In this document: piece after piece, positions 12,477 through 34,155 of the stretch
Layout of the letters: every line of letters begins with the position of its first letter
Numbering within the stretch: the stretch's first letter is position 1
Source: Vulcanimicrobiaceae bacterium
GTDB lineage: Bacteria; Vulcanimicrobiota; Vulcanimicrobiia; Vulcanimicrobiales; Vulcanimicrobiaceae
Length of the DNA: 42,557 nt
Direction: 5' to 3'
Assembly: GCA_046262595.1 (NCBI GenBank)
Contig: JBHEMM010000021.1
Span: forward strand, 1 to 42,557
Translations under genes and position numbers: made by a program
Notes under the pieces: model-generated
Seen by the model: only the letters and a program-made list of their open reading frames with translations
The model's database searches: none
Told to the model about the DNA's origin: nothing

Positions 12477-13078
12477 GCAGCCGCAAGAATCTTTTCAACG
12501 TCGGCGCACTTGCGGCAGGCTTGGCCGTGACGTTCAAGCACATGTTTTCAAAGAAGCCGACCATTCCGTATCCATCGCAAAAGAAAAAGCATGCGCCGCG
12601 CTTTCACGGTCTGCACGAACTGCGGCGCTATGCCGACGGCAAAGAGCGCTGCATCGGCTGCGAGCTGTGCTCGAGCGTCTGCCCGGCAAACGCTATTACG
12701 GTGATTGGAGCGGAGAACGCTCCGGGCGATCGCCGATCGCCCGGAGAGCGCTACGCCGCGCGTTATGAAATCGACGAGCTGCGCTGTATTTTTTGCGGCA
12801 TGTGCGAAGAAGCGTGCCCCACGGACGCCATCGTCCTCACGCCGCGGTTCGAGATGTCGGAGTACCGGCGGGGCTCGCTGATCTACGCGAAGGATCGTTT
12901 GCTGGTGCCGCCCGAAGCCGGCGTCGGAGAAGCGCCCGACGGCCGCCCGAACGGCATTCCGTGCGATCTCGGCAGCGTCGCGGAGAGAAAATCGACGGTG
13001 GATTGGCGGACCGGCTACGATGCGACGTGGCGCGGGCAGATTCTCAAGACGCAGAAGAAGGGCCTGGCCGAAGAGTGA
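12473..13078 (+). CDS. nuoI: NADH-quinone oxidoreductase subunit I
   Basis: Two 4Fe-4S motifs, CIGCELCSSVCP and CIFCGMCEEACP. Confidence 0.96.
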   Translation: MSSRKNLFNVGALAAGLAVTFKHMFSKKPTIPYPSQKKKHAPRFHGLHELRRYADGKERCIGCELCSSVCPANAITVIGAENAPGDRRSPGERYAARYEIDELRCIFCGMCEEACPTDAIVLTPRFEMSEYRRGSLIYAKDRLLVPPEAGVGEAPDGRPNGIPCDLGSVAERKSTVDWRTGYDATWRGQILKTQKKGLAEE

Positions 13079-13674: not shown

Positions 13675-14000
13675 TGATGCCGCACGCCGGCCTGCTCCCC
13701 GTCGCCCTTTTTAACTACATCAGCCTCTCGCTGGTGATTTTCTGTATCGGCCTTGCCGGCGTGCTGCTGCGGCGCAATCCGCTGATCATGCTGATGAGCA
13801 TCGAACTGATGTGGAACGCGGCCAATCTGCTGTTCCTCACGTTCTCGCGCGCGTGGCTCAACAACAGCGGTCACATCTTCGCTTTCCTCGTGATCACCGT
13901 CGCGGCCGCCGAAGCTGCGATCGGTTTGGCGATTGTGGTGGCGGTTTTCCGCGATCGGCAGAACGTCGATGCCGATGAAGTGGCGCTTCTCAAAGGATGA
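13671..14000 (+). CDS. nuoK: NADH-quinone oxidoreductase subunit K
   Basis: RRNPLIMLMSIELM and VAAAEAAIGLAI. Confidence 0.96.
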   Translation: MMMPHAGLLPVALFNYISLSLVIFCIGLAGVLLRRNPLIMLMSIELMWNAANLLFLTFSRAWLNNSGHIFAFLVITVAAAEAAIGLAIVVAVFRDRQNVDADEVALLKG

Positions 14001-14020
14001 GCTGCGCATCTCATCCTTTT
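13992..14020 (+). terminator. Palindrome / terminator-like hairpin between nuoK and nuoL
   Basis: AAAGGATGAG-CTGCGCAT-CTCATCCTTT forms a perfect 10-bp stem ending in TTTT and includes the nuoK stop codon. Confidence 0.4.
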
Positions 14021-14041
14021 GGAAGCGCGGTGGAGAAATGA

Positions 14042-16039: not shown

Positions 16040-17436
16040 TGTCCGTGCTGCTCATTTTGATTCCCATGATCGCGGGTGCGCTGCTGTTCGCACTTCCCGC
16101 TGCGGATCGCACTGTAAGCCGCATCGCCGGCTGCGCTGTCGCCGCATTCACCTTTTTACTGCCGCTCGCAGCAGGCCCCGGCGGAACGTTCAGCGCGCAT
16201 TGGCTGTCGCGCCCGTTCGACGCCGCGTTCCACTTGAGTTGGAGCGGCATCTCGCTCTGGCTTGTGTTGCTGCTTGCGGTCTGTACGTTCTGTGCGGTGC
16301 TTGCCGCAAACGTGACGCACACGCGGACGATGATCGCGCTGCTGCTGCTGCTCGAGGGCAGCATGATGGGCGTCTTTACGGCGCGCGATCTGCTCGCGTT
16401 CGCGCTGTTTTGGGACCTGATGCTCATTCCGCCGTTTTTTGCACTCGTGGGATGGGGCGGTCACCGTGAAACGGCGTGGCGCTACTTGCTCTATAATTTT
16501 GCCGGAGGATTAACGCTGCTGCTCGCAACGGCGGCCTTCGGCGTGATCCAAGGCAGCACCGACGTACTCGCCGGCGGGGCACATGCGGTGATCGGCGCCT
16601 GGGCGCCGTGGATCTTTGCCGGGTTTGCGTTTGCGTTCGCCGTAAAGACGCCGCTGTTTCCTTTGCATACGTGGATGCCGGCGACATATGCGGATACGCC
16701 GGCGCCGATGGTCAGTGTGGTCAGCTCGGTGCAGTCGAAGGCCGGTCTCTACGGATTCTTGGTGATCGGATTGCCGTTCTTGAGCGGCCAGATGGCGCAA
16801 TGGCGGGGATTGTTCGTCGTCATCGGGTTGATCTCGCTGCTCTACGGCGCATTTATCGCGCTCGCGCAGACGGACGCAAAGCGTATCGTGGCCTACTCGT
16901 CGCTCTCGCATCTGGGCCTCATCGCGCTCGCGGTGTTCAGTCAGAATCCCGTGGCCTTACAGGGCGCGCTGATCTATATTGTCGCGCACGGATTGTTCAG
17001 CGCAGCGCTCTTTCTCATACTCGGTTACGTGGAACAGCGCGAAGGAACGCGGTCGCTGCGCCGTCTGGGCGGTTTGGGCGCGCTCAATCCGAAGCTCGCC
17101 GGCGCGTTCACGATCGCCGCGTTGGCGGCACTCGGGCTTCCGGGCCTTGCCGGCTTTGCGGGCGAAATCGTCATTCTGACGGGCGTGCTGCGCGCGGGAC
17201 TGTTCTGGCCGGCGATGATCGCGCTTATCCCGATCGTTCTGGCTTCCGCCTACGTGCTGCGCTTGCTGCAAGACGTCATGAACGGCCCGCCGGTTGAGGA
17301 CTTGCCCGAGCGGCGCGATCTGACGCTCGTCGAAGGATTGGCCGTTGCTCCGCTGCTCGGCGCGCTCGTCGTACTCGGCGTGAACCCGCACGCGCTGACC
17401 GCAAGCGTCGCGGCAATTTTGGGAGCGAAACCATGA
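16039..17436 (+). CDS. nuoM: NADH-quinone oxidoreductase subunit M
   Basis: FAVKTPLFPLHTWMP, KRIVAYSSLSH, AHG and LPGLAGFAGE. Confidence 0.95.
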   Translation: MSVLLILIPMIAGALLFALPAADRTVSRIAGCAVAAFTFLLPLAAGPGGTFSAHWLSRPFDAAFHLSWSGISLWLVLLLAVCTFCAVLAANVTHTRTMIALLLLLEGSMMGVFTARDLLAFALFWDLMLIPPFFALVGWGGHRETAWRYLLYNFAGGLTLLLATAAFGVIQGSTDVLAGGAHAVIGAWAPWIFAGFAFAFAVKTPLFPLHTWMPATYADTPAPMVSVVSSVQSKAGLYGFLVIGLPFLSGQMAQWRGLFVVIGLISLLYGAFIALAQTDAKRIVAYSSLSHLGLIALAVFSQNPVALQGALIYIVAHGLFSAALFLILGYVEQREGTRSLRRLGGLGALNPKLAGAFTIAALAALGLPGLAGFAGEIVILTGVLRAGLFWPAMIALIPIVLASAYVLRLLQDVMNGPPVEDLPERRDLTLVEGLAVAPLLGALVVLGVNPHALTASVAAILGAKP

Positions 17437-18866
17437 TCCTCAACCCGTACGGGGCGCTCGATTGGAACGCGGTCGCGCCGCTCTTCATCGTCGCAGGCGC
17501 CGCCGTCATCGTTCTGCTTGCCGATCTGCTCGTGCGAAAGCCGAACGGCTGGATATCGATTGGAATCGCCATTGCGGGTCTGCTCGCGGCGGGCGCATAT
17601 GCGGCGCGCAGCTTCGGCACGGTCCACTCCGCGTTCGCCGGCGGCTTTTTGCTCGGCGGATTCGGCATCGTGATGCAGGAAACGATTGTCATCGGCGCTT
17701 TGCTCGCGCTCGCAATGATCCGCGTCGACCGCAATCCGCAGCGCATCGGCGGCAGCGTCGCGCTGCTTCTGTGGGCGACCAGCGGCGCCATGCTGATGGC
17801 GGGCGCCGGGAACCTCATGACCGTGTTCTTGGGGCTGGAGCTGCTCTCGCTCGCACTGTATTGTTTGTGCGCGCTCGGCCGGCGTGCTGCGTCCCGCGAA
17901 TCAGGCTTCAAATATCTCATCCTATCCTCGACGGCTTCCGGGTTTCTGCTTTTCGGCATGGCGCTGCTGTTCGGCGCCACGGGAAGCATGGCGCTGGGCG
18001 CGCTCACCGCTCCCGCGCTCTCGCACGATCCGCTCTATTGGATCGGCGGCGGCCTATTTATCGCGGGGCTTGCGTTCAAATTGAGCTTGGTGCCGTTTCA
18101 CGTGTGGTCGCCCGACGTGTACGAAGGCGCTCCGCTCGCGGTGACGGCCTACATGAGCGTGGTTACGAAGGTCGGAACGCTGGCGGTGCTCGCGCGCTTC
18201 ATCTTCTCCGCATACGCTGCCGGAACCGGCGACGCGCTTCTGCTGCCGCTGTTCATCATCGCCGGCATATCGATGGTCGCCGGCAATGCGGCAATGATCG
18301 CGCAGACCGACCTCAAGAGGCTATTGGCGTATTCCGGCATCGCGCAGGCGGGGTATATCGTTGCGGCGCTCGCGGGCGGCACGGCACTGGGCGCGCGCTA
18401 TGCGATCTACTACGTCGTCGCCTACACACTTATGAACCTGGGCGCGTTTGCCGTTGCGGCGCTCTGTTCTCACGATGCCGAAGAGGGCGCGCACTTGCCA
18501 TCATACCGCGGGTTGGCGCGGCGCAGACCGTTCCTGGCTGCGGCCATGACGTTCTTTCTGCTCGCGCTCGCCGGCTTTCCGCCGACGGCCGGATTTCTGG
18601 GCAAAGTGCTCATCCTGTCGGTGAACGTGACGGCCGGCTTTGCCTGGCTGGGCGCGTTGCTCATCATCGGCACCGCGATATCGCTTTACGCCTACTTTAA
18701 AATCATCCGCGCGATGTACGAGCCGCAAGCGCGGCCGACCGCAGCGGCCGCGCGTTGGACGCAGTTGCCGTTGGCCTACGTGTCCATCGTCGTGTGCGCT
18801 GCGGCGATAGCGGTGATGACGTTCTATCCGCTCACGCCGAGCAGCGTTCTCCCGCTTGCGCGATAG
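17433..18866 (+). CDS. nuoN: NADH-quinone oxidoreductase subunit N
   Basis: LELLSL, ESGFKY, FKLSLVPFHVWSPDVYEGAP, KRLLAYSGIAQ and AGFPPTAGFLGK. Confidence 0.95.
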   Translation: MILNPYGALDWNAVAPLFIVAGAAVIVLLADLLVRKPNGWISIGIAIAGLLAAGAYAARSFGTVHSAFAGGFLLGGFGIVMQETIVIGALLALAMIRVDRNPQRIGGSVALLLWATSGAMLMAGAGNLMTVFLGLELLSLALYCLCALGRRAASRESGFKYLILSSTASGFLLFGMALLFGATGSMALGALTAPALSHDPLYWIGGGLFIAGLAFKLSLVPFHVWSPDVYEGAPLAVTAYMSVVTKVGTLAVLARFIFSAYAAGTGDALLLPLFIIAGISMVAGNAAMIAQTDLKRLLAYSGIAQAGYIVAALAGGTALGARYAIYYVVAYTLMNLGAFAVAALCSHDAEEGAHLPSYRGLARRRPFLAAAMTFFLLALAGFPPTAGFLGKVLILSVNVTAGFAWLGALLIIGTAISLYAYFKIIRAMYEPQARPTAAAARWTQLPLAYVSIVVCAAAIAVMTFYPLTPSSVLPLAR

Positions 18867-18945: not shown

Positions 18946-19009
18946 TCTGGTAGTAACGACGTAAGGGAATGCGGGTGCTCCCCCTCGTGTTGACGTGGGA
19001 GAGACTAAA

Positions 19010-19510
19010 ATGGATTTTCGGCGCGCGCTCATAGCGCTCTGCTTTTTGACTTCTACGCTGCCCGGAATCGCGCTTGCGCGACCGCAGGTGGCTTTGCATT
19101 TGTCCGCATTTTTAATTCAATCGTCGCAAGGCCGCAGCTCGCAAGTGCCGCTCGGCGATAAGAAGGCGCAAGCCGGAGATCGCGTGCGCTTCATTATCGA
19201 AGCGCGCAACAGCGGTTCGTCTTCCGCCTTGCATCTGACGCCCACCGATCCGATTCCGGCGCACATGACGTATGTGAGCGGCAGCGCACAGGATGGCCAA
19301 TCCACCGTGCAGTTTACCGTGGACGGAAAAACGTGGGCCGAACATCCCACCGTTCACGTCAAGACGAGCAAACGAACCATCAGCAAGCCGGCTGACCCCT
19401 CGATGTACAGGGCAATCCGCTGGGTGACGCACGTAGCATTACCGGCAAAGCATACGTTCACGTATTCGTACGAAGCGCAAGTGGACGGTCTTAAAAAAGG
19501 CGCGAAATGA
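19010..19510 (+). CDS. Small secreted DUF11-like (conserved repeat domain) protein
   Basis: GGGAGAG Shine-Dalgarno, ATG at 19010 and a signal peptide ending ALA. DUF11-like GDRVRFIIEARNSG...TDPIPAHMTYVSGSA...IRW...FTYSYEAQV. Confidence 0.8.
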   Translation: MDFRRALIALCFLTSTLPGIALARPQVALHLSAFLIQSSQGRSSQVPLGDKKAQAGDRVRFIIEARNSGSSSALHLTPTDPIPAHMTYVSGSAQDGQSTVQFTVDGKTWAEHPTVHVKTSKRTISKPADPSMYRAIRWVTHVALPAKHTFTYSYEAQVDGLKKGAK

Positions 19511-22080
19511 ACCGGATTCTTTTGCGCGCCTGGTTCGGCGTTTTTGTCTTTGCCTGCGTTCTGGGATTGGCGCTCTCGCGGCACTCCGCCATGACGCCCG
19601 TAATGGCCGTTACGCCGAGTCCTACGCCCGTTCCGCTGCCGTACGCTTCGGCGACGCCGACACCGGCGAGTCCCTCGCTCACCGGCCCGGGACAAACGAT
19701 CACCAACGCCGCGTCCGCAACGTACAGCGACGGCACGAATACGTACAATATTCTCTCGAACACGGTCACCGTTTACGTGCAGAACGCTCCCACGCTCGTC
19801 GTACTCACGAACAACGGCACGAGCGTGGGAAGCAACACGACCCGCTATCCGGGCGTCTACACGTACGATCTGTACACGCTCGTCAACACGGGTAATGGGA
19901 CGGGCTATTTCACCGTCGCATCGGGCCCGCAAGCCTCGCCCACGCCGTTGCCCGCAACGAACAGCGGCACGGGAACGACCGGCACGGTCACCAACGTCAG
20001 TTACGATGTCAGCTGCAGCGGCGGCGCGACTTTGAACGACATCGTCACCACGATCGCCGCGCTGAATACCGACTTGCAGAACGCTGCGTGCAGCGTTGCT
20101 TCCAACGGCTCGGTGAGCATCGAAGTGGTCCTCGACCCGACGGCGGCGCCCGCTTCGGACGGATCGACGCTCGAAGCGCAGATCACCTATTCGACGAGCG
20201 GCACCGGCTACAATGCCGCGAGCTCGCTCTATGCAAGCAACTCGTACGTCGACCCGGTCGTCACGGACGAGCGAATCGACGTGCAGAAATCCCCGGCACC
20301 GATCGCGACGGACGGTACCGTCACGTATGCGGTCACCGCCAACAATGCCGGCAACGGCCCGGCGCAGTACGTTACCGACTATGGCACTACGTGTACGGGC
20401 ACCGTTACGGTGTGCGGCCCGGCATTGACGGGCCCCGGCTTGCTGATCGCGGATAAGATTCCGCTCAATGCAAGCAACACGCCGCTCCCCGTCGTTACGA
20501 TGTCGCCCTCGCCCGGGCCGCAAGCGCTGCCGCCGAGCACGACCGTTTCCGTCGTTTACACCACCGACAGTACTGCGAAGACGGGCTGGACCGTGAAGAC
20601 GGCCGCAACCTTCCCGCCGACGACGCGATACGTCGGCGTGTTCCTCACGGGCGGCGCATATGCGCTCGGCGCGGACCCCACGCCTGCGGCAACGACGACG
20701 CCGGGCTTCGTGCCGGCGGCGAGTTCGCAGATCGGTTTTAGCGTCACGCTCGGGCCGCTCCCCGCGAACCTCACCGTCAGCAATATCGTGACGGCTGCGG
20801 CGGGAGACAACAAGACGACGCCGTGCATCGAAGGGCCCGGCTTGGTGACGACCTCGACGAGCTGCGATCCGAACGGACCGAACGGCCCCGGCGGCGATCC
20901 GTCGATTCCGCTGGCAACGGCGCCGCCTTCACCGAGCGCGCCCGGACCGGGCCTCTCGAACACGACGACGACGTTTACTCCCGCGCTTTACAACGGCCCG
21001 CTCACTGCTCCGGATGCACAAGGCTGTTTCAACAGCAGCGCAGCTCCGGTGCCCCTGCCGACGTGGAGCCCGATGCCCAATCCGTTCCCGACGATTTCGC
21101 CCACAACGTCGCCGACCTGTGCCGCAACGGACAACCAAGACGACTTCACGCAAGCCGTGAGCACGCCGAATCCTTCTACGACCAACATGCCGTACGGCAC
21201 GCAGATGTCCGCCGCATCGACCGTGACGGTGGCGAACTCGATTAAAAACCCGGGCGCGCAATCCACCGTGTATCAGTTGACGTTTCCAACGCTTCCGGCG
21301 GGCATTACGGTGACGAGCGTCACCTACGGCGCCGCGTCGTGCTCGACGACCTCAACGCCGGCCTCGGGCGTATATCCGCTGGGAAGCATCGGCGCAGGTG
21401 CAACGATCCAATACTGCGTGCTCTATACCACCGCGACCGGTGCGAGCGCGCCGTATTACTTCCAGCCGCAGTTCGTTCAACTGCGCGTTGCATACTCGTC
21501 GGCGCCGGCGGTGTACTACAACGACACGTGGAACGTGCTGATGCCCGGCGGTTTCGTTGAAATCGTTAAGACCGCCAACATCCTGACCGCGCTTCCCGCA
21601 ATCTCGAACTTCTCCGGAAACTGCTCGGGAACGATTACGGGCGGCTTGCCGACGCTGGGCGTCTGTCCGGGCGGCATCATCCAATACGCCGTCGCCTACG
21701 TCAACACGTTACCGCCCACCTCAAGCGGCACGCCGGCCGAACCGGCTGGAGCATCCGTTGCGATGACGGGCAACTTGGTGATCACGGAAGACGGCGCTGT
21801 GAACGGCAGCAATTGGACGACGTACACGGGCGGCATGTTCGACCCTGCCGGCGCGGGTACGGTGCCGCTTGTTGCGGGGCTTTCATTGAGCACGCTCTCG
21901 GCGAATTGCGGCATCGTAACGCTCAAATGCGGCGCGACATCCGCTTCGGCGACCTTCGGCGGCGGCGCCTCACCGAATGGCAACCTCTACGGCTCGACGC
22001 ACTTCACCGCTACCATTCCCGCTGCGGGCATTACGGCGCAGAGCGTCGGCACGTTGATGTTCGCCGCAAAAGTGCACTAG
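19507..22080 (+). CDS. Secreted Thr/Pro/Cys-rich DUF11-family surface protein (candidate major fibre subunit)
   Basis: Signal peptide and N-terminal GQTITNAASATYSD...SNTVTVYVQ. One internal DUF11 (VQKS...DKIP...VSNIV) and a C-terminal IVKT...CPGGIIQY...ITEDG...FAAKVH. There are 14 Cys in the mature part. Confidence 0.8.
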   Translation: MNRILLRAWFGVFVFACVLGLALSRHSAMTPVMAVTPSPTPVPLPYASATPTPASPSLTGPGQTITNAASATYSDGTNTYNILSNTVTVYVQNAPTLVVLTNNGTSVGSNTTRYPGVYTYDLYTLVNTGNGTGYFTVASGPQASPTPLPATNSGTGTTGTVTNVSYDVSCSGGATLNDIVTTIAALNTDLQNAACSVASNGSVSIEVVLDPTAAPASDGSTLEAQITYSTSGTGYNAASSLYASNSYVDPVVTDERIDVQKSPAPIATDGTVTYAVTANNAGNGPAQYVTDYGTTCTGTVTVCGPALTGPGLLIADKIPLNASNTPLPVVTMSPSPGPQALPPSTTVSVVYTTDSTAKTGWTVKTAATFPPTTRYVGVFLTGGAYALGADPTPAATTTPGFVPAASSQIGFSVTLGPLPANLTVSNIVTAAAGDNKTTPCIEGPGLVTTSTSCDPNGPNGPGGDPSIPLATAPPSPSAPGPGLSNTTTTFTPALYNGPLTAPDAQGCFNSSAAPVPLPTWSPMPNPFPTISPTTSPTCAATDNQDDFTQAVSTPNPSTTNMPYGTQMSAASTVTVANSIKNPGAQSTVYQLTFPTLPAGITVTSVTYGAASCSTTSTPASGVYPLGSIGAGATIQYCVLYTTATGASAPYYFQPQFVQLRVAYSSAPAVYYNDTWNVLMPGGFVEIVKTANILTALPAISNFSGNCSGTITGGLPTLGVCPGGIIQYAVAYVNTLPPTSSGTPAEPAGASVAMTGNLVITEDGAVNGSNWTTYTGGMFDPAGAGTVPLVAGLSLSTLSANCGIVTLKCGATSASATFGGGASPNGNLYGSTHFTATIPAAGITAQSVGTLMFAAKVH

Positions 22081-22096
22081 GCACAATCGAGGTCTG

Positions 22097-24256
22097 GTGA
22101 AGGGTGCCTTCGTCCGACTAATACCGGTCGCCACGGTCCTCATGACGCTCGTTGTCATGTTGGGCCGTGGCGAATCGGCATATGCCGGGCCGTCCGATCC
22201 GGCCGCTAACACAACGATAATCAATTCGGCTACGGCGACCTGGTCCGACAGTGCCGGGCATAGTTTCGAAGAATCGTCCAATCAGATTACCGTTATCGTC
22301 CAAGGCGTTTCGGCGCTTACCGTGACGCCGAAGGAAACCGCTGCGAATCCCTCGCTGGATGGTTATCCCGCCGCTCAAAACGTGACGCGGACGTTCGTGA
22401 TCGAAAACGCGAGCAACATCGCCGACGCGTACCGCATATCCGCATTTACGGCCGACCGCGGAACGCTCGTTTCGCTTGCGTTCGTCACGTCCGGCGGGAA
22501 CGTTCCCATCACCGTCGGTTCCACCGTCTCGCCCACGCTGCAGCCGGGCGAGAGCATCACGGTGCAAACGGTCGTCTCAACGGCGGGCATTGCGGTAGGC
22601 ACCTCGTTTGCGCTGCATCTCACGGCGCAGACCACCGTCACGGGAACCGCGAACGGCGTGCAGAGCGACAGCGGCGAGCAATGGCTTGTGGCGGCGGCCG
22701 GTCCGGCTTTGAGCGGCCCCGGCGGCGGCAGCACGCCGATCTCGAAAACGGTGAACCGCGAACAAGTGCTGCAGTCGCAGTCGGGCGCGATCGTCACGTT
22801 CGACATCGTCGTAAAGAACAACGGCGGGACGCCTGCCGACAACGCGGTGATGACGGATACGATACCCGCCGGCCTGACGGCCGACCTGACGACGCTTAAA
22901 CTCAACGGCGTTGCGGTTTCGGGAACGCAATCCGGTCAAACGCTCACGGTGCCGCTTGGCATGCTGGCGGCAGGCGCGGTCGACGACGTCTCGTTCAATT
23001 CGCAGATCGCTGCTATCGATACGCTCGGCACGACGTTCGTGAACGTCGCGGCGATCGCCGCAGACGGTATTGCGCCGGCCTCGACGACGCCGGCCGCCAT
23101 TTTGATCGGCACGGCCGACATCGTTTTCGACCCGTCGAACAACAACGCGCCGATCGCCGGCGCGACCGTTTCGCTCCTCGACCAGAACAGTCACTTGGTG
23201 CCCCTGGGCGCCGGCAGCAACGGCGCGTTCCGCGCGAAGACTTTTTCCGCTCCGCAGTCGGCCAATTCGCAGAACCCGTTGCTCACGGGTCCCGACGGCA
23301 CGTACGGGTTCGCGCTCGAGCCGAATCAAATCGGCCCCGGCGCAGGCACGTTTTACATTACGATTCAGGCTCCCGGGTATCTTAACCGCCGAATCAAAAT
23401 CGTTCTCACGGCGTCCACGCAAGGCATGCTGTACGACGTGACGACCTCATCGCAGGACGGCCAGCCCTTAGCGCACGCGGGCGGGTATGCGCTTACAACG
23501 GGCGCCGTTGCGCTCAATAATATCTTCGGTTTGTTCGGCAACTTGCCGATGTTCAAAACGCAGGCGATTACCATCGATAAAGTGGTCGACCGCACCAGCG
23601 CGCAACCCGGCGACCGGCTCGTCTACACGCTCGATGTTGCGAACCCGTCCGGCGCGCCGCTGATCGCGGCCAAGGCGATCGACACGCTGCCCTCGGGCGA
23701 ATCGTATGCGCCCGGATCCGCGCGCGTGGATGGGGTCCCGCGCGAACCCGCCGTCAACGGACGCGCGCTGACGTGGAATCTCTCGACGATCGCCTCGGGC
23801 GCGAAACATCAGATCGTTTACGCGGCGATCGTCTATCCCAACGTCCCGGCCGGTACCACGTTGACGAACTCCGCGGTCGCGCAGGCGGTCCTCTCGGGAA
23901 CACTGGTCAACGTAAATGCCGCGGCCAATGCCGACGTCATCATCACCGAAGGCGCATTGAGCGACCGCTCCGTCATCACCGGCCGGGTGTTCGCGGACCT
24001 GATGCACACCGGCCGCTTCGTTAAAGGCGATCGCGGCCTGGCCGGCGTGCGCGTCTTTCTTGAAGACGGCACCTCGGTGACGACGGACTCGCAAGGGCGC
24101 TACAGTTTCCCGGGCGTCCGGCCGGGCATGCACGTGCTTCGCGTCGACCGGACGACGCTTCCCGACGGCGCAAACGGGACGTTTCAGCGTCTCATCCACG
24201 GCGTGCTCGACGACGGGCTGATGCAAGACGTCGAGTTTGCGGTGGGTTCGCCATGA
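22097..24256 (+). CDS. Secreted protein with two DUF11 domains, a carboxypeptidase-regulatory-like domain and a C-terminal SdrD B-like domain
   Basis: DUF11 copies ISKTV...TDTIP...FVNVA and IDKVV...IDTLP...LTNSA. C-terminal ITGRVFAD...GDRGLAGVRVFLEDG...TDSQGRYSF.GVRPG.H. Confidence 0.8.
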   Translation: MKGAFVRLIPVATVLMTLVVMLGRGESAYAGPSDPAANTTIINSATATWSDSAGHSFEESSNQITVIVQGVSALTVTPKETAANPSLDGYPAAQNVTRTFVIENASNIADAYRISAFTADRGTLVSLAFVTSGGNVPITVGSTVSPTLQPGESITVQTVVSTAGIAVGTSFALHLTAQTTVTGTANGVQSDSGEQWLVAAAGPALSGPGGGSTPISKTVNREQVLQSQSGAIVTFDIVVKNNGGTPADNAVMTDTIPAGLTADLTTLKLNGVAVSGTQSGQTLTVPLGMLAAGAVDDVSFNSQIAAIDTLGTTFVNVAAIAADGIAPASTTPAAILIGTADIVFDPSNNNAPIAGATVSLLDQNSHLVPLGAGSNGAFRAKTFSAPQSANSQNPLLTGPDGTYGFALEPNQIGPGAGTFYITIQAPGYLNRRIKIVLTASTQGMLYDVTTSSQDGQPLAHAGGYALTTGAVALNNIFGLFGNLPMFKTQAITIDKVVDRTSAQPGDRLVYTLDVANPSGAPLIAAKAIDTLPSGESYAPGSARVDGVPREPAVNGRALTWNLSTIASGAKHQIVYAAIVYPNVPAGTTLTNSAVAQAVLSGTLVNVNAAANADVIITEGALSDRSVITGRVFADLMHTGRFVKGDRGLAGVRVFLEDGTSVTTDSQGRYSFPGVRPGMHVLRVDRTTLPDGANGTFQRLIHGVLDDGLMQDVEFAVGSP

Positions 24257-27200
24257 TCCGCCGCTCGTTTGCGCGCCTGCTGCAGGCCGTCGCGGTGCTG
24301 TTGATCTGCGTAGCCGGCGTGGGTTCGACGTTGTTCTTCACGCGCGCGCAAGACGATTCGAAACCGCAATACAGTGACCTCTCCCATCTGAAGCTGACGG
24401 CGACGCGCAGGCTGCCGGCCAACGTGATCGCTCCGCAGGACGGCGCATCGATTTCGGGCGCCGCAACGCAAGTCACCGTGGAAACCGTGAACGGTGCGGG
24501 CGTCGAGCTCCAGGTGAACGGCGAGATCGTTCCGGTTCGGAACTTGGGACGCATGAGCGTTTCGAAGGCGGGAACGACGCAGTTCGAGTACTTCGGCGTG
24601 CTCCTTCGTGCCGGTCCGAACACGCTGCTTGCCACGGCAATCGGCGCCGGCGGCGCACGCGGAGCATCACAGAGCGAAACGATCTTCGGCGCCGGGCCGC
24701 CCGTCGCGATCCATGTATCGATGCTTGGTTCGCTTGTCGCGGACGGTAAAACGACGGCCCGGCTCATCGTCGATGCGGTCGACCAATGGAATCATCCCGC
24801 CATGTCGGGATCGGAAGTGCGCGTGAAGATTCTGCAGGGCCGCGCGCGCGTGGGCAACGCCGGCCAAAGCGATCCCGCAGCTGGCGCGTCGCCGGCTCCC
24901 TCGGCGTTTGCAACCTCGCTGCCCGCAAGCGGCACATCGTCGCCGCAAGCGCATTACGTTCTGGCGCAGGGCGGCCGCATCGTCATTCCGCTGACGGCCT
25001 CACTCGAGCCCGGAACGCTGCAGCTGCAGGTTGCGGTCAACGACATCACCGATACGCAGAGCTACACGATTGCGCCGTACCTGCGCGCTCCGTTCGTCAA
25101 CGGCATCATCTCCGCCGGAGCCGGGAACGTCCCGGCCGCCGTTGACGGCGACGGACGCTATGACGGCGGCGGCGCGCGCAAAGAGCGTCTTGCGATTTAT
25201 GCAAACGGCAAAGTAGGGCGCGCAAGTTCTCTCACGTTCTCGTACGAATCGCAGAACCGTTTAGAGGAATCGTCCTCGCTGGGTCCGTTCGTTTCGAATC
25301 CTGACGAGCGTCCGTATCAAACGTACGGCGACTCCTCGCGCGTAACCAGCGATTTTCACTCGACTGACCGCCTTTATGCACGCATCGATAACGGCCGCAA
25401 CAATCTGATGTGGGGCCAATACACGGCGGCCGTCGGAGATCCGCAGGGCGTTGCGCATTACGAGCAGCAGATCAGCGGCCTCAAAGGCGAGGCGACGCTG
25501 GGGCGTCCGGGACAAGGCCATGTCATGGCGTTTACCGCGCACGATCGCACCGGCTACGTGGCGTTCACCACTCCGGTTTCGGGGTTGGGAGCGCTGCTTG
25601 CGCCGCTGCACCCGAACGTCGTGATCGGCTCGGACGTGCTCACGCTCGTGGCTTTGGACCGCCGCACGGGCGCAGCCGCGTCGCAGACGCCGCTCACCCG
25701 CAACGTCGACTACACGATCGACTACGCGACGGGCGCGCTGCGTTTCCTCAATGTTCCGTTACCGTTCGATCAGAACTTCAATCCGCAGTTGCTGTACATT
25801 CAGTATCAATACCAGGGCCCCGACGTAAAATCCGAGACGAGCGGATTCGACTTCCGCTATGCACTGGCGCGCAACGGCTCCGCGACGTTTGACTTCGGCT
25901 ACTTGAACGATGCGAGCGGTACGACGAACTACTCGCTCGCGACGCAGTCCTTGAGCGGCCGCATGCCGACGGGCGATTGGCGTTTCTCGCGCGCAACGAG
26001 CAACGGTTCGGCGCCGACCGCCGCAAGCTTCGGCGAAACGCCGGCCTCGCGCGGAAGCGCAACGTCGTTCGCGCTTAACGAACACGTTCGCGGCAACGAG
26101 ATCGCTTTCAACTACCAAAATACAGGCGCCGGATTTGCGAATCCGTTCGGCGGCTTTAACGTGACGGGTTTGGAGAACATCCAGGCCACGTTCGCGCACC
26201 GCACGCGCAGTCAAAGCGCGTTCACGCTTTCTCTCTCGCAGCAGCGCAATACCGGAGGTTCGGGCGGATCGACCGGCGTTGAGCAAAACGTCGTGGCGAG
26301 CTGGCAGGCTGCGATCGCCAAAGCGCTCGCCGTTACCTTGGGATTTCAAGCGCAGCGCGAGACGAACGGCCCGGGCGCGATTGTGCCCGGACACACGCCG
26401 GTGCAGCCGGTCAACGGTTCGAGCGCCGGGCTGCAGGCGGGATTGCAATGGAAGGCGTCGCGCCGGCTCAGCGTGAGCGTGCAGCATGCCGCCTCACTCG
26501 GCGGCAACAGCCAAATTTTGCCTTCGCAAACCGCCGCGGAAGCCGACTACGATCTGCCCACGCAAGGCCGGCTCTACGTGCGCGAGCTGCTCGGCGGCGG
26601 CGTCTCGAGTTTTGCCTCGTCCACGTCGAGCCTTACAAACGCTTCCCTCGGCTCTCGTTCAACGCAGATCGGCATTCAGCGCACGATCGGCTCCACAACG
26701 GCGCTCGACACGTCGTATCTCATCGCCGACACGGGCAACGAAACGAACGTGTATACGACGCTGGGCGTGCAGGAAACGTTTCACCTTGGTAAGCGCCTCT
26801 CCGGCAACGCGACGTTCGAAAGCGCGCGTTCCACCGGCGCAAGCCCGGGCGGATTCAGCACGCTCGGAACGGGGTTGACGTACAGCGATCTCAAAGATTT
26901 CCGCGCCTCGTTTTCAATGCAGACGCGCGGCGGGGGCGGCGGCGGAATGACGATGAACGGAGGCGCTGCGGGGCATATCGGCCAAAATCTCGCGCTCATG
27001 GGATCGTTCAATGAAACGTTCGGCAACGGCCTTTCCATTGTTGACGACCGCATCTCGCTCGCGTTTCGTCCGTCTCAGAACGACAGGTTTATCTCGCTGC
27101 TCGGGCTGGACCGCCAATCCGGCGGCTATACAAACACTGCCGGAACCTCCGACATCCTCTCGTTTGAGGAAGTGTACCGGCCCACGCTTACGACGGAAAT

Positions 27201-27528
27201 TGCGGGCCGCGTCGGCTACAAGCTCAATGGCGACGGATACTATCTCGCGCACAGTTCGGTTGCGGGCGTGCGCATCACCCAATCGCTCGGCGCGCGGTTC
27301 GACATCGCCGGCGAAGTGCGCGCGATGGCTGCCGGGAACGTTGCGTCCGCGCGTTCTTCGGATTTTGCAGCCGAGATCGGCTACAAAGCGGGCGGCGCGC
27401 GGCTGTCGGGCGGGTACAATTTCTCTGGTGCGGTCGACCCGTCGCTTACCGGACATCCGCAGCGCAAAGGCTTGTATGTGATGGTAACGGCGCTTGTCGA
27501 TCGCATCTTCGGCTGGGGCAAGCCGTGA
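24253..27528 (+). CDS. Large putative outer-membrane beta-barrel protein with N-terminal Ig-like domains
   Basis: Signal peptide and Ig/Big_1-like segments (LVADGKTTARLIVDAVDQW). About 750 aa of Gly/aromatic-rich amphipathic strands follow, ending GLYVMVTALVDRIFGW. Confidence 0.7.
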   Translation: MIRRSFARLLQAVAVLLICVAGVGSTLFFTRAQDDSKPQYSDLSHLKLTATRRLPANVIAPQDGASISGAATQVTVETVNGAGVELQVNGEIVPVRNLGRMSVSKAGTTQFEYFGVLLRAGPNTLLATAIGAGGARGASQSETIFGAGPPVAIHVSMLGSLVADGKTTARLIVDAVDQWNHPAMSGSEVRVKILQGRARVGNAGQSDPAAGASPAPSAFATSLPASGTSSPQAHYVLAQGGRIVIPLTASLEPGTLQLQVAVNDITDTQSYTIAPYLRAPFVNGIISAGAGNVPAAVDGDGRYDGGGARKERLAIYANGKVGRASSLTFSYESQNRLEESSSLGPFVSNPDERPYQTYGDSSRVTSDFHSTDRLYARIDNGRNNLMWGQYTAAVGDPQGVAHYEQQISGLKGEATLGRPGQGHVMAFTAHDRTGYVAFTTPVSGLGALLAPLHPNVVIGSDVLTLVALDRRTGAAASQTPLTRNVDYTIDYATGALRFLNVPLPFDQNFNPQLLYIQYQYQGPDVKSETSGFDFRYALARNGSATFDFGYLNDASGTTNYSLATQSLSGRMPTGDWRFSRATSNGSAPTAASFGETPASRGSATSFALNEHVRGNEIAFNYQNTGAGFANPFGGFNVTGLENIQATFAHRTRSQSAFTLSLSQQRNTGGSGGSTGVEQNVVASWQAAIAKALAVTLGFQAQRETNGPGAIVPGHTPVQPVNGSSAGLQAGLQWKASRRLSVSVQHAASLGGNSQILPSQTAAEADYDLPTQGRLYVRELLGGGVSSFASSTSSLTNASLGSRSTQIGIQRTIGSTTALDTSYLIADTGNETNVYTTLGVQETFHLGKRLSGNATFESARSTGASPGGFSTLGTGLTYSDLKDFRASFSMQTRGGGGGGMTMNGGAAGHIGQNLALMGSFNETFGNGLSIVDDRISLAFRPSQNDRFISLLGLDRQSGGYTNTAGTSDILSFEEVYRPTLTTEIAGRVGYKLNGDGYYLAHSSVAGVRITQSLGARFDIAGEVRAMAAGNVASARSSDFAAEIGYKAGGARLSGGYNFSGAVDPSLTGHPQRKGLYVMVTALVDRIFGWGKP

Positions 27529-30370
27529 GCCGCGGCGGCAAACGGCTTGTAAAACGCACTGCGGTTGGACTGGTTCTGCTCGCGCAGGTGTACGCGTTCG
27601 TTCCGGCGCCGGCGCAAGAACGGCAGACGTACGCCTTTGCCGCAAGCGTCACGTGCCCAACCACGCCCGGAAACTATGTCGCCGGCGGGACGCTGGCCGC
27701 CGGCGTGAACAGCTATTGGCAGCCGCCCGCGGGGACGCTTGCGGCAGGCTCCACGACGTTTTCGCTGGGAACGATCGACACCGCGGGCGGCGGCGCCTCC
27801 ACAACGCCGAGCGCCGGCGACGAACTGTTGCTGATCCAGATGCAAGACGGATCCATCAATACGGCCAACAGCGCGGCTTACGGCGGCGGGGGCACCGGCG
27901 GCACCGGTTTCACTTCGCTCGGCAACGCCGGCTTGTACGAGTACGTATCGGTAACCGGCGTGGCGGGTTCCACAATGACGATCCAGGGCNNNNNNNNNNG
28001 ACCGCCACGAACCAGCGTTATCAAATCGTTCGCGTTCCGCAATACACCACGGCAACGCTTTCCGGAAACTTCCGCGCTGCGTATTGGGACGGGAAAACCG
28101 GCGGCGTCGCTGCTATCGACATGGCCTCGACGCTCAACCTCAACGGTGCGTCGGTTTATGCGACCGGCGACGGTTTTCGCGGCGGCGCGCTTTCCGTGTC
28201 GTCCACCTCGCCCACCGCGGTGCTCAACAGCGATTACGTGGATTCCGAGTCGATGAACGGCGGGACGAACCAGCCGGCGTTCGGCGTGAAAGGCGAAGGC
28301 GTGAGCGGTTCGCCGCACGGCGTGTTCTACTACACGACATTTACGACGCCCTCGGCGCCCGCGGGCCCCACAATCGTTACGCCGGGCAGCACCGACGGCT
28401 ATTCCGGCGGTGACATGGGAATGGGCGCGCCGGGCAACGGCGGCGGCGGCGGCACCGACGACAATCCCGTCGCCAACGATCAGAATTCCGGCGGCGGCGG
28501 CGGCGGCGACGGCGGGGCGGGCGGCAACGGCGGCTATCCCTGGACACCGTATTACAGCGGCAACACGGCGCTCTATTCGAATCCCGGCGTGCATACGGGA
28601 ACGGGCTACAGCGCGTTCAACAGCGGCGACATCGGCGGCCGCGGCGGTTCGGCGTTATCGAGCTACGCCTCCGTGTCGCGCGTCTTCATGGGCGGCGGCG
28701 GCGGATCGGGATCGAACAACAACGGTTCCAACAATAATGCTTACACCGCGGACGGCAGCTCGGGCGGTGTCGGCGGCGGCATTATCCTGATGCGTCTTGC
28801 CGATACGAGCGGAACGGCCGCGCATATTTATGCCAACGGCACGACGGGGCTCGCCCCGAACAACGACGGCGGCGGCGGCGGCGGCGCGGGCGGTTCGGTT
28901 GTCATCACTTCTCCGCAAGCGTTCAACAATATCAGCGTTGACGTGAGCGGCGCGGCCGGAACGAGCGCCGATGCAGCGGGTTCGTTTCCCGGCAACCAGC
29001 ACGGCCCAGGCGGCGGCGGAGCGGGCGGCACGCTGGTGAGTTCGAGCAGTGTGACGGCGACGAACGGCGGCGGCGCCCCGGGAACGACAACGCCCAGCGT
29101 GACGACGTACGGCGCGAGCGCCGGTTCGAGCGGCGTCACGTTCAACGGCACGGTGACTTCCGATCAGGTGCCCGGCTTAGGGTCGGGCGCGCAGTGCTAC
29201 ACGTCCGGCACGGTGAACTCATCAACCCTCTACGCGGGGCCGTACGACAGCGGCGAGGCAACGTATCTGGGCGCAAATGAAACGGGGTCGTACGACGGCA
29301 CGCAGCCCGCTTCGAATAACAACGACTTCACCGCGCGCGCCATTGCGTTTCCGACGCCCAGCCCGCAGCCCTCGCCGGTCTTGATCGACACTTCGAGCAC
29401 GGGCAGCGCATTGATTCCCGTCGGCAACACATTCTCGCTCGCCAGCGCGCCGTCGAATAACGTTGCGCATGAAATGTACTACATCGATACGACGGCGAAA
29501 GCGGCGCACACCCTCACGCTGACTGCCGTCGCGCCGATCCTGCCCGCGCAGTGGAGCGTGCAGATCTGTCCCGACGCTGCGGGGTCTCCGGGCTGCGGCT
29601 CGTACACCGCAGGTTCCGGAAAATGCAGCCAGGCGAAGCCGGCAGAGCAGAATACCTGGGAAAGCACCGCGATCGACACTGCCGGTTCGACCGCTTCACT
29701 GCAGTACTGTTACTACAGCGGCACGACGCCCACGGCCCAAGCGGTGACGTTTTGGCTTGTCTACACGGGTCCGACCGGCACGTACACGGCATTTTCGCGG
29801 TACGACGGATACGTGCAAATTCAAGACGATCAACCAACGCCTGCTTCGAACAAGACGCACGACGAACTGTACGCCGGATTTATTCCGGTCGGCAAGAGTT
29901 ATAGCGTCGTAAAGAGCAATTGCACGGGATCGTTAAGCGTACCGGCAAGCGGCGTCTGCCCGGGCGGCGTAATTCAGTACTCGATCAACTATGCGAACAT
30001 TGTGTCCGGCGGCGGCATGGGAACGGAAGGCCAAGTTGCCGCGGCGTTCCCCGTGAGCGGCGCGGGAACGCTGAAGATCACGGACGACGGTTCGGCGAGC
30101 GGTTCGAATTGGGCGACCTACACCGGCGGTTTGACCGGGGCGCTCGGCGCGGGCGTTTCAACGGCAACGCAAGCCAATTGCGGCATCACCTCAAGCAGTT
30201 GCGGCGATACGACGAGCGGGACGACGTGCGTGTACACCGGCGGTGTTTCGGGCGTGGGGGCAACGAAGTTCGTCTGTACCATCGGCGGCGCGACGGGGCA
30301 GCTTTATCCCGCCGCATTCACCGGTAAGACCTCGTCGGGGAGTCTGGTTTTCGCCGCGAAAGTGCACTGA
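27525..30370 (+). CDS. Large secreted Gly-rich adhesin-like protein (candidate tip subunit); spans an assembly gap
   Basis: GTG at 27525 overlaps the upstream stop and is followed by a signal peptide and GDELLLIQMQDG...GNAGLYEY. After the 10-N gap the 27494-frame continues with YQIVRVPQY, WDGKTGG, GFRGG, poly-Gly blocks and a C-terminal domain homologous to 19507-22080. Confidence 0.75.
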
Positions 30371-34088: not shown

Positions 34089-34155
34089 CACCGGAAGGTG
34101 TGAGGCCCGGTAACGTTCGGGAAACTTTTCCATTGTGAGGAGCGGCGCACCGTCC

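Follow-up and report, generated by a model that had tools for sequence, protein, structure and literature searches.

A candidate head-to-tail surface fibre joined by a split isopeptide-type domain in the Eremiobacterota

Five consecutive genes in a window of 42,557 nucleotides, the whole stretch of DNA analyzed here, from a Vulcanimicrobiaceae bacterium are on balance best interpreted, in our view, as encoding a modular, head-to-tail adhesive surface fibre that is likely isopeptide-locked and has an unnamed outer-membrane partner. The gene set is conserved among relatives, its products are truncated at complementary ends, the residues of the proposed isopeptide joint are retained, related genomes carry colinear unsplit versions, and the corresponding parts co-vary within genomes. 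The Eremiobacterota (Vulcanimicrobiota), to which the locus is probably restricted, are a little-known soil phylum. According to PMC9758169, the phylum is globally abundant and its only described cultured member has an outer membrane.

If true, a split self-ligating isopeptide domain would here be seen for the first time to join a pilus-like fibre in a diderm bacterium, and evolution would have reached the SpyTag/SpyCatcher trick independently. Such a system would bridge chaperone-usher-style complementation, the isopeptide pilins of Gram-positive bacteria and giant tandem-repeat adhesins, with the unsplit giants of sister genomes representing an evolutionary intermediate. With p4 it would also establish a new outer-membrane family for export or anchoring, and it would supply new orthogonal protein-ligation pairs.

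Gene set and complementary chain ends

The initial annotation had described five co-oriented, mostly start/stop-overlapping genes for secreted proteins, and the ORFs bear this out between positions 18995 and 30370 of the forward strand. They are p1 (18995-19510, 171 residues), with a single DUF11-type domain; p2 (19507-22080, 857 residues), a candidate shaft subunit; p3 (22097-24256, 719 residues), a candidate base or terminator; p4 (24253-27528, 1091 residues), a candidate outer-membrane beta-barrel; and p5 (27525-30370, about 960 residues), a candidate tip, all five being secreted. The ORF calls give overlaps of 4 nt for p1/p2, p3/p4 and p4/p5, and a spacing of 16 nt between p2 and p3. The p5 gene is broken by a scaffold gap of 10 Ns at 27991-28000, absent from the initial annotation, which accounts for an apparent frame shift.

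A signal peptide, a Pro/Thr linker, a donor hairpin, three Ig-like domains and a C-terminal acceptor domain make up p2. Structural searches covered only domains 1-3. Domain 1 spans approximately residues 94-253; domain 2 (252-493) resembles the pilin domains of BcpA, SpaD and Cna (Z 7.7-8.9) and domain 3 (493-682) the N-terminal domain of PorA (Z 10.0) in structural alignments. A complete CnaA-like domain lies within the chain (20275-20826, forward strand), its candidate triad K261/D316/N426 being invariant in 64 sequences and its VIA matches including BcpA (3kpt_B, Z 8.9, rmsd 3.1, 129 aligned residues) and SpaD (4hss_B, Z 8.3). In p3, a signal peptide and donor hairpin are followed by three complete isopeptide-type domains, with candidate triads K79/D110/N186, K217/D254/N316 and K495/D529/N591, of which the first two are invariant in 10 sequences, and by a C-terminal SdrD_B/CarboxypepD_reg-like module; there is no acceptor domain. 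Two stretches of p3 match Pfam DUF11 (E 5.6e-13, 49.6 bits against a cutoff of 24.6), and p3 also matches TIGR04226 RrgB_K2N_iso_D2 (E 6e-12). The SdrD_B-like end previously proposed for this donor-only protein holds as a resemblance, with CarboxypepD_reg above its cutoff, but SdrD_B itself scores 28.2 bits, just under the cutoff of 29.7. Finally, p5 comprises a signal peptide, a Gly-rich AgmC_N-like region (E 6e-14, far below the cutoff) and a C-terminal acceptor domain, and is without a hairpin. Genes like p5 follow p4 in 21 of 56 loci, and p5 is an exchangeable accessory tip, a point that the initial annotation did not make.

The acceptor domains of p2 (21547-22077, forward strand; residues 681-857) and p5 (29873-30367, forward strand; with the motif ITDDG) both end in FAAKVH followed by the stop codon, and the C-terminal regions of the two proteins share 30% identity over 388 columns (E 5e-22). 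Lys688 of p2 (codon 21568-21570) is invariant in 64 sequences and Glu761 (21787-21789) is at least 90% conserved; the corresponding Lys of p5 (29894-29896), within its acceptor domain, lies in the strand GFIPVGK. The two Lys codons, like the Asn codons given below, had been correctly named before. All of p1, p2, p5 and the variant tips stop after ...[F/Y]x[V/A]xV[K/H/N], and the chain ends of p1, p2 and p5 correspond to a point just past the F strand of a DUF11/CLIPPER-type isopeptide domain. A family-wide profile search recovered 136 library proteins matching the acceptor profile through to its end; in 128 of these the domain ends at most 3 residues from the protein C-terminus, and in the remaining 8 it is followed by tails of 5-15 residues, none of which carries another domain.

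These ends had been called DUF11-like. The Lys, the acidic residue and the FAAKVH stop stand, but the DUF11 identity came from motifs only and is not significant in Pfam: none of 64 p2 homologues and none of 14 acceptor domains matches DUF11, and 2 of the 14 match DUF7927 weakly (E 0.048 or worse). Profile-profile comparison of the p2/p5 acceptor with complete domains covers the B strand only (probability 18-65%). Two tip variants, L056:12339 and L056:14403, match DUF7927 over positions 14-95 and 14-94 of 132, and these matches end at most 1 residue from the protein C-terminus.

A candidate for the missing portion is found at the other end of the neighboring chains. An N-terminal Asn-bearing segment had been proposed for both p2 and p3, and the two prove to be conserved and mutually homologous: a beta-hairpin of about 40 residues, with the Asn, opens both proteins after the signal peptide. 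In p2 it occupies 19681-19803 on the forward strand (residues 59-99, TGPGQTITNAASATYSDGTNTYNILSNTVTVYVQNAP...; Asn67 codon 19705-19707) and in p3 22199-22321 on the same strand (PAANTTIINSATATWSDSAGHSFEESSNQITVIVQ...; Asn43 codon 22223-22225), while in most ORFs it lies at residues 21-62, immediately after the signal peptide. It is the most conserved stretch of the p2 family, with T59, I65, N67, A69, Y73, D75, S84, N85, V87, V91 and Q92-A94 invariant in 64 sequences; in p3 the invariant positions, across 10 sequences, are N43, D51, S61 and N62. BLASTP (40% over 47 residues) and profile-profile comparison of the hairpins (E 1.7e-15, probability 98.5%) both relate the N-terminal segments of the two proteins. 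The hairpin alone gave no match to the DUF11 model in 19 cases, and a hairpin HMM run over 23,136 residues of giants and tandem-DUF11 proteins recognized none of their internal terminal hairpins. The earlier assignment of p5 as acceptor only, p2 as donor plus acceptor and p3 as donor only is upheld.

That p1 is itself a free-standing, truncated domain of acceptor type was missed by the initial annotation. It matches Pfam DUF11 (E 1.2e-7, 32.4 bits, cutoff 24.6) over positions 10-66 of 114, ends right after the F strand, and lacks the conserved Lys and Asp. Its family ends in ...YSYEVRVK in a 10-sequence alignment, and hhalign pairs it with the truncated C-terminal domain of the variant tips (probability 97%, E 1.4e-10) such that both ends coincide.

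Conservation across loci and unsplit relatives

The survey of gene neighborhoods that had been proposed found p1, p2 and p3, in this order, upstream of p4 in 44 of the 51 loci with enough flank, and the p1-p4 order is kept in all nine loci of relatives. The p1 gene is present in 44 of 45 loci with p2 and p3 upstream of p4, and in none of the other six, namely five with a giant p3-like gene adjoining p4, plus L074.

The candidate reactive residues are likewise retained. A triad census of the window and loci L011-L089, which includes some duplicate loci, found the hairpin Asn in 117 of 118 cases (Ser replaces it in one p3 hairpin), the acceptor Lys in 86 of 89 and the acceptor Glu/Asp in 87 of 91; a few acceptors are without the Lys and/or the acid, as in L081. 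The conservation anticipated for these residues was found. The residue set of CnaA-like domains, with Lys in the first strand, a catalytic Asp/Glu and Asn in the last strand, is conserved within the p2 and p3 chains, and the same set is conserved across chains at the frequencies just given, the bond itself being a prediction.

Related genomes hold unsplit giants, single finite adhesins of 1790-2744 residues that are colinear with tip-stalk-p3 and have classical tandem DUF11/DUF7933/DUF7927 stalks. In L080 a p4 homologue is immediately preceded by the gene for one protein of 2450 residues, which resembles a tip variant across residues 34-483 (40% identity, E 4e-74) and p3 215-716 across residues 1937-2447 (38% identity, E 1e-90). 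Such single polypeptides corroborate the tip-shaft-base order advanced earlier. The pieces also fit in register: on a complete domain of the giants, 150 template positions long, the C-termini of the variant tips align over positions 23-101 (probability 86%, E 5e-6) and the p2 and p3 hairpin profiles over positions 101/102-144/146, Asn on Asn (E 0.03-0.07). This Asn-on-Asn register recurs with three further complete domains (E 4e-4 to 0.17).

Within loci, p2 and p3 hairpins are more alike than between loci (identity 0.472 versus 0.430; permutation p 1e-4, 51 loci), and so are the p2 and tip acceptors (0.446 versus 0.381; p 1e-4, 19 loci), whereas the control comparison of the first and second DUF11 domains of p3 gives 0.249 both within and between loci (p 0.55). 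This co-variation of donors and acceptors between genomes hints at lineage-specific pairs; donor-donor and acceptor-acceptor co-variation could also arise by gene conversion.

The proposed joint and its precedents

We propose that a CnaA-like isopeptide domain of the DUF11/CLIPPER-DUF7927 kind has been cut genetically in its F-G loop. The tip, be it p5 or the tips of other genomes, and p2 would end with the first part of this domain, containing the Lys strand and the catalytic Glu/Asp, and p2 and p3 would open, once the signal peptide is cleaved, with the missing last two strands bearing the Asn. An incoming subunit would insert its hairpin into the C-terminal domain left open by the preceding one, thereby rebuilding that domain and linking the chains head to tail in the order tip <- (p2)n <- p3; the apposition of Lys, Asn and Glu/Asp would allow an autocatalytic Lys-Asn isopeptide to lock the joint. 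The SdrD_B-like C-terminal module of p3 may then couple the fibre to p4, a probable outer-membrane barrel, for export and/or anchoring. For p1 the candidate roles are those of a cap and of a hairpin chaperone: being a free acceptor-type domain that has neither the Lys nor the Asp, it might hold hairpins non-covalently, serving as a cap or, if later displaced, as a chaperone. We also put forward, tentatively, a more specific version for the Eremiobacterota: the naturally split CnaA-like domain would be a self-ligating connector producing a covalent tip-(p2)n-p3 fibre without a sortase or a PapD/PapC-type pair, the p3 C-terminal module would anchor it to p4 as a new outer-membrane family, and the Lys-less p1 would be a reverse-polarity chaperone holding the donor hairpin until handover and lock.

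It might be argued that the hairpin instead completes the acceptor of its own chain, giving a cyclized p2, or is just a part of the N-terminal domain in p2 and p3, with no link between proteins. Self-complementation is common in monomer models of pilins, and AlphaFold2 places a confident, clean two-stranded hairpin in both p2 monomer constructs. However, deleting the acceptor domain leaves the hairpin confidence (pLDDT 80-90 without it, 70-88 in full p2) and the pTM (0.60 versus 0.59) unaffected, so that the models give no sign of the hairpin docking into the acceptor, at least in cis, which weighs against the proposed joint as well, and most single-domain structural alignments of p2 domain 1 begin after the hairpin and leave it outside. 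Moreover, the hairpin of p3 occurs without an acceptor, and the acceptors of p5, p1 and the variant tips occur without a hairpin; hence completion in cis cannot be general, and we consider this explanation highly improbable.

Joining by split domains could also be real, covalently or non-covalently, and yet yield a defined one-to-one-to-one segmented adhesin of tip, p2 and p3 rather than a polymer. The unsplit giants, being finite adhesins, suggest that the split form may simply copy their architecture, and the genome of the window has only two acceptor domains, p5's among them, and two donors. Against this, the donor and the acceptor of p2 are of the kinds found in its partners, and the close homology of the p2 and p3 hairpins points to no obvious feature in the sequences that would bar p2-p2 joining. 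We regard a fixed stoichiometry as unlikely, though worth weighing beside the polymeric fibre that we favor.

The principle of complementation combined with an intermolecular isopeptide, which the initial annotation overlooked, is already described. Archaeal threads (Saci_0406, PMC9715654) and Clostridium perfringens BsaA of the TasA family (PMC11580942) are natural filaments that both achieve it without a sortase ('exchange and lock'), the former through a bond between the N-terminal amine of Asp24 and Asn57 of subunit n+2, the latter through N35-K74-E56. These subunits are small and single-domain, have other folds and residues, and belong to an archaeon and a monoderm, in which no outer membrane has to be crossed, whereas here a recognizable intramolecular isopeptide domain family is split between genes; no TasA-type match is listed for p1-p5 in Pfam or NCBIfam. 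DUF11 has been experimentally shown to be an intramolecular Lys-Asp-Asn isopeptide domain (PDB 9IFR) and DUF7927 is a predicted Lys/Asp/Asn family (PMC12617251). Like these DUF11/CLIPPER adhesins, p1 and p3 match DUF11, and p3 and the internal domain of p2 keep the Lys/Asp/Asn pattern; the bond described there is intramolecular, whereas here the Asn strand and the Lys/acid part are on separate polypeptides.

The chaperone-usher pili (FimA-FimH-FimD, PapA-PapG-PapH-PapC) also have Ig-like subunits completed by the N-terminal segment of the next subunit, as predicted here, an acceptor-only tip, a donor-plus-acceptor shaft and a donor-only base, and a large outer-membrane protein in the operon, for which p4 is the candidate; tip-to-base growth would be implied in both. 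In the present system, by contrast, the donor has two strands and forms a hairpin that corresponds to the end of a CnaA-like domain, multidomain subunits of 700-960 residues provide just their final domain as acceptor, a covalent lock is predicted, and the small p1 would offer a groove, not a strand. Pfam detected no PapD-like chaperone and no PapC/FimD usher among the operon proteins and 24 other ORFs of the window; in line with the claim that known pilus machinery is lacking, PapD, usher, sortase and type IV pilin families are absent from the 26 window and locus proteins scanned. Sortase pili (SpaA, RrgB, BcpA) consist of covalently linked multidomain pilins with CnaA/CnaB domains, which find their counterparts in p2 domain 2 and the RrgB match of p3 and in the covalent link predicted here. 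Here, however, the host is diderm and the bond between subunits would form autocatalytically within a rebuilt domain. The window has no sortase gene, and p1-p3 and p5 have no LPXTG-type C-terminus, p1 (...GLKKGAK) as well as p2 and p5 (...FAAKVH) ending directly after a beta-strand and p3 ending in ...FAVGSP. SpyTag/SpyCatcher is an engineered split CnaB2 in which a short strand piece binds the remainder and a Lys-Asp bond forms spontaneously; the present isopeptide domain is likewise split, but is natural, CnaA-like and head-to-tail, with a predicted Lys-Asn bond.

The probable outer-membrane partner

The N-terminal part of p4 contains Big_1/invasin-like Ig domains. The protein itself has no significant Pfam relative and no PDB relative by sequence or profile, and neither p4 nor any of 42 homologues matches an usher. 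Among these 42 homologues, Big_1 occurs in 7, Invasin_D3 in 5, DUF2490 in 2 and CopB and OmpA_membrane in 1 each, the barrel-type matches being weak and confined to 4 of the 42. For residues 520-1091 the nearest ESM named clusters score 0.94 and 0.90, with OMP_b-brl or Porin_4 in a minority (14-33%) of the members of the neighbors. These weak hits make the C-terminal ~570 residues a candidate outer-membrane beta-barrel for export and/or anchoring. As in type V secretion (autotransporters, intimin/invasin), a beta-rich outer-membrane partner would be genetically coupled to an Ig-repeat passenger: Big_1 and Invasin_D3 recur among p4 homologues, and in P0198 a single chain combines a p3-like DUF11+SdrD_B part with a p4-like one. 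In contrast to type V systems, whose families p4 does not match, p4 greatly exceeds a 12-strand autotransporter barrel in size, and the passenger is separate and, in this locus, segmented.

The constant presence of p4 allows a further explanation, by which p4 reads the shared C-terminal domain as a tag for export or sorting, following the logic of the T9SS CTD; the hairpin would be unrelated and the proteins separate adhesins with no joined fibre. The tag reading draws on the position of the domain, at the very C-terminus of 128 out of 136 homologues and followed by a short tail in the remaining 8, since an always-C-terminal domain also resembles a secretion or sorting signal; on the p2/p5 domain not being recognizably DUF11; on p4 being always adjacent; on the stability of the hairpin alone in AlphaFold; and on the likeness of p2 domain 3 to PorA, which is T9SS-associated. 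Yet no T9SS sorting-domain model in Pfam or NCBIfam matches p1-p5 at E <= 0.1, and the sole T9SS-related line for p4 is an insignificant SprA match (E 0.011, 12.9 bits against a cutoff of 200). A tag also leaves unexplained the near-invariant Lys and acid of the domain together with the hairpin Asn, the tip variants that stop inside a Pfam isopeptide-domain match, and the co-variation within genomes. Further, p3 is without the domain and yet is the protein with the tightest link to p4, through its C-terminal module, through the giant adhesins and through the fusion in P0198. We therefore judge a tag rather unlikely, and retain the joined fibre as the preferred reading. The start of p4 overlaps the p3 stop here and in most relatives, and the p3 C-terminal module, whose position as the part linked to p4 the initial annotation had missed, is common to the giant adhesins adjoining p4 homologues.

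Organization and conservation of the candidate fibre operon

The five genes of the candidate fibre operon lie on the forward strand at 18995-19510 (p1, a free acceptor-like domain), 19507-22080 (p2, the candidate shaft), 22097-24256 (p3, the candidate base), 24253-27528 (p4, a candidate outer-membrane barrel) and 27525-30370 (p5, the candidate tip), with 4-nt overlaps at three of the four gene junctions. They are carried by contig C21 of a 2.4 Mb genome that comprises 122 contigs, is about 90% complete and, judged by the names of homologues, falls in Candidatus Eremiobacterota/Vulcanimicrobiota. Immediately before them on the same strand is a complete-looking nuo (complex I) operon (3813-18863), with 131 nt separating nuoN from p1, and on their 3' side are genes for a TPR protein, RidA, a decarboxylase, a hybrid kinase and a GGDEF protein. 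The p5 gene is broken by a 10-N scaffold gap (27991-28000) across which the reading frame differs, and a few p5 residues are therefore absent from the assembly; intact homologues, such as the 968-aa protein encoded at L017:10122-13025 in a related locus, identify p5 as one gene. Among the neighbors, a hybrid histidine kinase adjoins a PAS-GAF-GGDEF diguanylate cyclase (34135-37757, forward strand), and a flagellin gene is present downstream of the operon (41081-42526, reverse strand); the accessible text of PMC9758169 reports the flagellin gene as missing from a cultured member of the phylum. The initial annotation saw no recognizable PapD, usher, sortase or type IV pilin genes in the locus, and a Pfam scan extends this to the whole window, none of these families being detected anywhere in it.

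The order p1-p2-p3-p4 is retained in 9 of 9 relatives' loci. A wider scan for p4 relatives recovered 70 loci, almost all labelled Eremiobacterota/Vulcanimicrobiota, with binning being a possible cause of the few labelled otherwise; none of the 70 bears the name of the cultured Vulcanimicrobium alpinus. Upstream of p4, where 51 loci offer 5.6 kb of sequence or more, p1, p2 and p3 occur together in 44, p2 and p3 in one and a single giant p3-like gene in another; none of these genes is found there in the remaining five, four of which have a giant p3-like gene downstream instead. Downstream, 56 loci extend 3 kb or more beyond p4 and contain p5-like genes (21), other acceptor-bearing tips (4), genes detected with the p3 HMM (6, namely two variant-tip loci and four giants) or with the p1 HMM (2), and nothing recognized in the other 23.

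Detached hairpins and truncated domains

The locus was initially proposed to encode DUF11 domains split between proteins, with an Asn-bearing segment behind the p2 and p3 signal peptides acting as donor and a C-terminal domain of p2 and p5 with a Lys and an acidic residue acting as acceptor. The observation itself is confirmed: every codon position cited for it is correct, the segments behind the two signal peptides are homologous (hhalign E 1.7e-15), and p2 and p5 are related over their last ~350 residues (30% identity, E 5e-22), both finishing in FAAKVH. Likewise, the signature K...D.xP...T.xN.A corresponds to an established isopeptide triad, because the accessible text of PMC12617251 gives an intramolecular Lys715-Asp748-Asn806 isopeptide, determined by crystallography (PDB 9IFR), for DUF11, now renamed CLIPPER. 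Pfam matches DUF11 in p1 and p3, to which NCBIfam adds an RrgB K2N isopeptide domain in p3. The description of the C-terminal domain of p2 and p5 as 'DUF11-like' holds for the motif alone, the Pfam family matching none of 64 p2 homologues and none of 14 acceptor domains. Isolated hairpins likewise gave no DUF11 match (0/19), and two of the 14 acceptor domains matched DUF7927 in Pfam, at E 0.048 or worse.

Across the 64 p2 homologues, the most divergent of which have 29% identity, conservation is highest in the N-terminal hairpin, where T59, I65, N67, A69, Y73, D75, S84, N85, V87, V91 and Q92-A94 do not vary; the C-terminal domain has K688 in every sequence, with conservation of T760 and E761 at 90% or above. 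A census of the triad in the window and 79 fetched loci, some of them the same record twice, found the hairpin Asn in 117 of 118 cases, the acceptor Lys in 86 of 89 and an acceptor Glu or Asp in 87 of 91. The one hairpin without Asn, that of a p3 (L069:276-2492), has Ser instead; one p2 (L081:4184-6721), in a locus without p1, has an acceptor with neither Lys nor acid, and the Lys is shifted two residues earlier in the p2 proteins of L015 and L057. The L081 p2 and L069 p3, as rare exceptions to the triad, may be non-covalent variants. Separately, p3 residues 77-200 (gene starting at 22097) form a domain without a Pfam match and with its own invariant K79/D110/N186, which may represent a further isopeptide domain family.

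When a complete DUF7927/DUF11-type domain of 150 columns, taken from giant unsplit adhesins, was used as template, the truncated tip domains occupied columns 23-101 (probability 86%, E 5e-6), and the p2 and p3 hairpin profiles occupied columns 101/102 to 144/146 with Asn aligned on Asn, the latter matches being weak (E 0.03-0.07). The hairpins took the same register against the first and second DUF11 domains of p3 and an internal p2 domain (E 4e-4 to 0.17). Searched against the giants and tandem-DUF11 proteins, the hairpin HMM recovered only the p2 and p3 hairpins themselves at iE < 0.05, and shuffled controls gave zero matches. In the donors the hairpin runs directly into the opening strand of the domain behind it, in the fashion of a tandem array; the hairpin is therefore structurally part of a domain, the first portion of which the chain lacks.

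When 1.84 billion representatives were searched with a profile of the 14 acceptor domains, 222 proteins were retrieved at E <= 0.001. Among the 150 matches listed, 136 extend to the profile end, and 128 of these terminate within three residues beyond it, the other eight having tails of 5-15 residues. The rest of those listed comprise fragments as well as canonical tandem DUF11 repeats, which cover only profile positions ~19-86 and continue after the F strand with ...LTNxVTLNYNDTNGNPYDELSDSVNVT, which closely resembles the p2 and p3 hairpins. One match, P0276, considered as a Rosetta stone in which the chain continues past an acceptor, was rejected as a chimeric or frameshifted fragment that runs into p4-like sequence; P0204, P0211 and other short matches, considered as minimal pilins, are gene fragments. 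An HMM based on the five P0292 repeats, which are nearly identical, proved too narrow, giving consistent placements with insignificant scores.

Unsplit relatives, variant tips and co-variation

The more distantly related p4 loci have, in place of the split genes, giants of 1790-2744 aa (L080:1529-8878, L084:1517-8896, L083:11319-19550, L086:11846-17224, L087:11517-17843 and L088:11880-17249), which combine up to 15 DUF11 stretches with DUF7933, DUF7927 and a C-terminal module as in p3; p1 and p2 are absent there, p1 being found only alongside the split form. The giants represent the same system in unsplit form. Residues 34-483 of the L080 giant match a variant tip (E 4e-74) and are followed by a stalk, residues 1937-2447 match p3 215-716 (E 1e-90), and its gene overlaps the start of the adjoining p4 homologue. 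In addition, the metagenomic protein P0198 (1802 aa) has a p3-like part with three DUF11 domains and an SdrD_B-like domain, similar to p3 491-690, fused to a p4-like part with similarity to p4 236-1086, a layout resembling that of an autotransporter in placing adhesin and p4-like parts in one chain. As Rosetta stones, these proteins argue for the N-to-C order tip-shaft-base-p4 and for contact between p3 and p4.

The gene after p4 differs between genomes (L056:12339-14390, L056:14403-15911, L058:12512-14059, L062:12342-14567, L060:12294-14198 and L064:10693-12828), some loci having two tips. These variant tips are exchangeable; at the N-terminus they are legume-lectin-like, tachylectin-like or Kelch-like, or of unknown type, and all have a truncated acceptor domain behind it, which in the lectin-like, tachylectin-like and Kelch-like tips terminates in ...FRVTVN. 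Two of them match DUF7927 in Pfam at positions 14-95 and 14-94 of 132; these matches stop at most one residue from the tip C-terminus, before the Asn position of the family, the triad positions being those in the accessible text of PMC12617251. p1, whose homologues terminate in ...YSYEVRVK, aligns end-to-end with the variant-tip domains (probability 97%, E 1.4e-10) and has no conserved Lys or Asp.

Donors also co-vary with donors, and acceptors with acceptors. The p2 and p3 hairpins have an identity of 0.472 within and 0.430 between genomes (51 loci, permutation p 1e-4), and the p2 and tip acceptors 0.446 and 0.381 (19 loci, permutation p 1e-4), against 0.249 and 0.249 for the control of two complete p3 DUF11 domains (50 loci, permutation p 0.55). 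Such a pattern is consistent with the evolution of donors and acceptors in matched sets, with gene conversion being an alternative source of the co-variation.

Proposed assembly and structural predictions

The fibre interpretation of the initial annotation is partly supported, and we give somewhat better than even chances to the locus encoding a modular head-to-tail fibre that is likely isopeptide-locked. In such a fibre, Sec would export the subunits and their signal peptides would be cleaved, whereupon an incoming p2 would insert its mature N-terminal hairpin into the C-terminal domain left open in the tip or in the preceding p2, rebuilding a CnaA-like sandwich in which Lys, Asn and Glu/Asp could then form the isopeptide. 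The chain would be ended by p3, because it has a donor and lacks an acceptor, and its C-terminal module would remain at the outer membrane together with p4. In topology the joined product would be equivalent to a giant tandem-repeat adhesin whose N-terminus is secreted first. As an acceptor without Lys and Asp, p1 may cap the distal hairpin or hold hairpins before hand-over. Strand complementation with an intermolecular isopeptide is known, from the accessible texts, in Sulfolobus threads (PMC9715654) and C. perfringens BsaA (PMC11580942). Compared with these, the splitting of a recognized intramolecular isopeptide domain between genes, the large multidomain subunits, the diderm host with a dedicated candidate outer-membrane partner and the free acceptor domain p1 would be new; a literature search of open-access article texts found neither the operon nor trans-joining of split DUF11/CnaA domains in a diderm.

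AlphaFold2 models of full-length p2 from the 64-sequence alignment have pLDDT 75 and pTM 0.59, with 70-88 for the hairpin. On removal of residues 665-857 with the same alignment, the hairpin is cleaner (E17-27 and E32-43 in construct numbering) with pLDDT 80-90 and pTM 0.60; hence its confidence is independent of the acceptor domain, and the deletion model lends no support to docking in cis and is neutral on docking in trans. Foldseek with the whole model gave only generic tandem-Ig matches. VIA related domain 1 (residues 94-253) to macroglobulin/RrgB-like folds (Z about 8, most rows beginning behind the hairpin), domain 2 (252-493) to BcpA/SpaD/Cna-like folds (Z 7.7-8.9) and domain 3 (493-682) to a PorA N-terminal-domain-like fold (Z 10.0), these Z values being middling on the tool's own scale and their alignments spanning domains 1-3 rather than the acceptor domain.

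No PDB relative of p4 was found. Its N-terminus reads as signal-peptide-like, and its homologues contain Big_1 (7/42), Invasin_D3 (5/42) and weak matches to the barrel families DUF2490, CopB and OmpA_membrane (4/42). The ESM feature neighbors of p4 520-1091 include clusters with OMP_b-brl (14% of members, score 0.94) and Porin_4 (33%, score 0.90), and p4 is likely an outer-membrane barrel; the accessible text of PMC9758169 describes the envelope of the cultured member of the phylum as typically Gram-negative, including an outer membrane.
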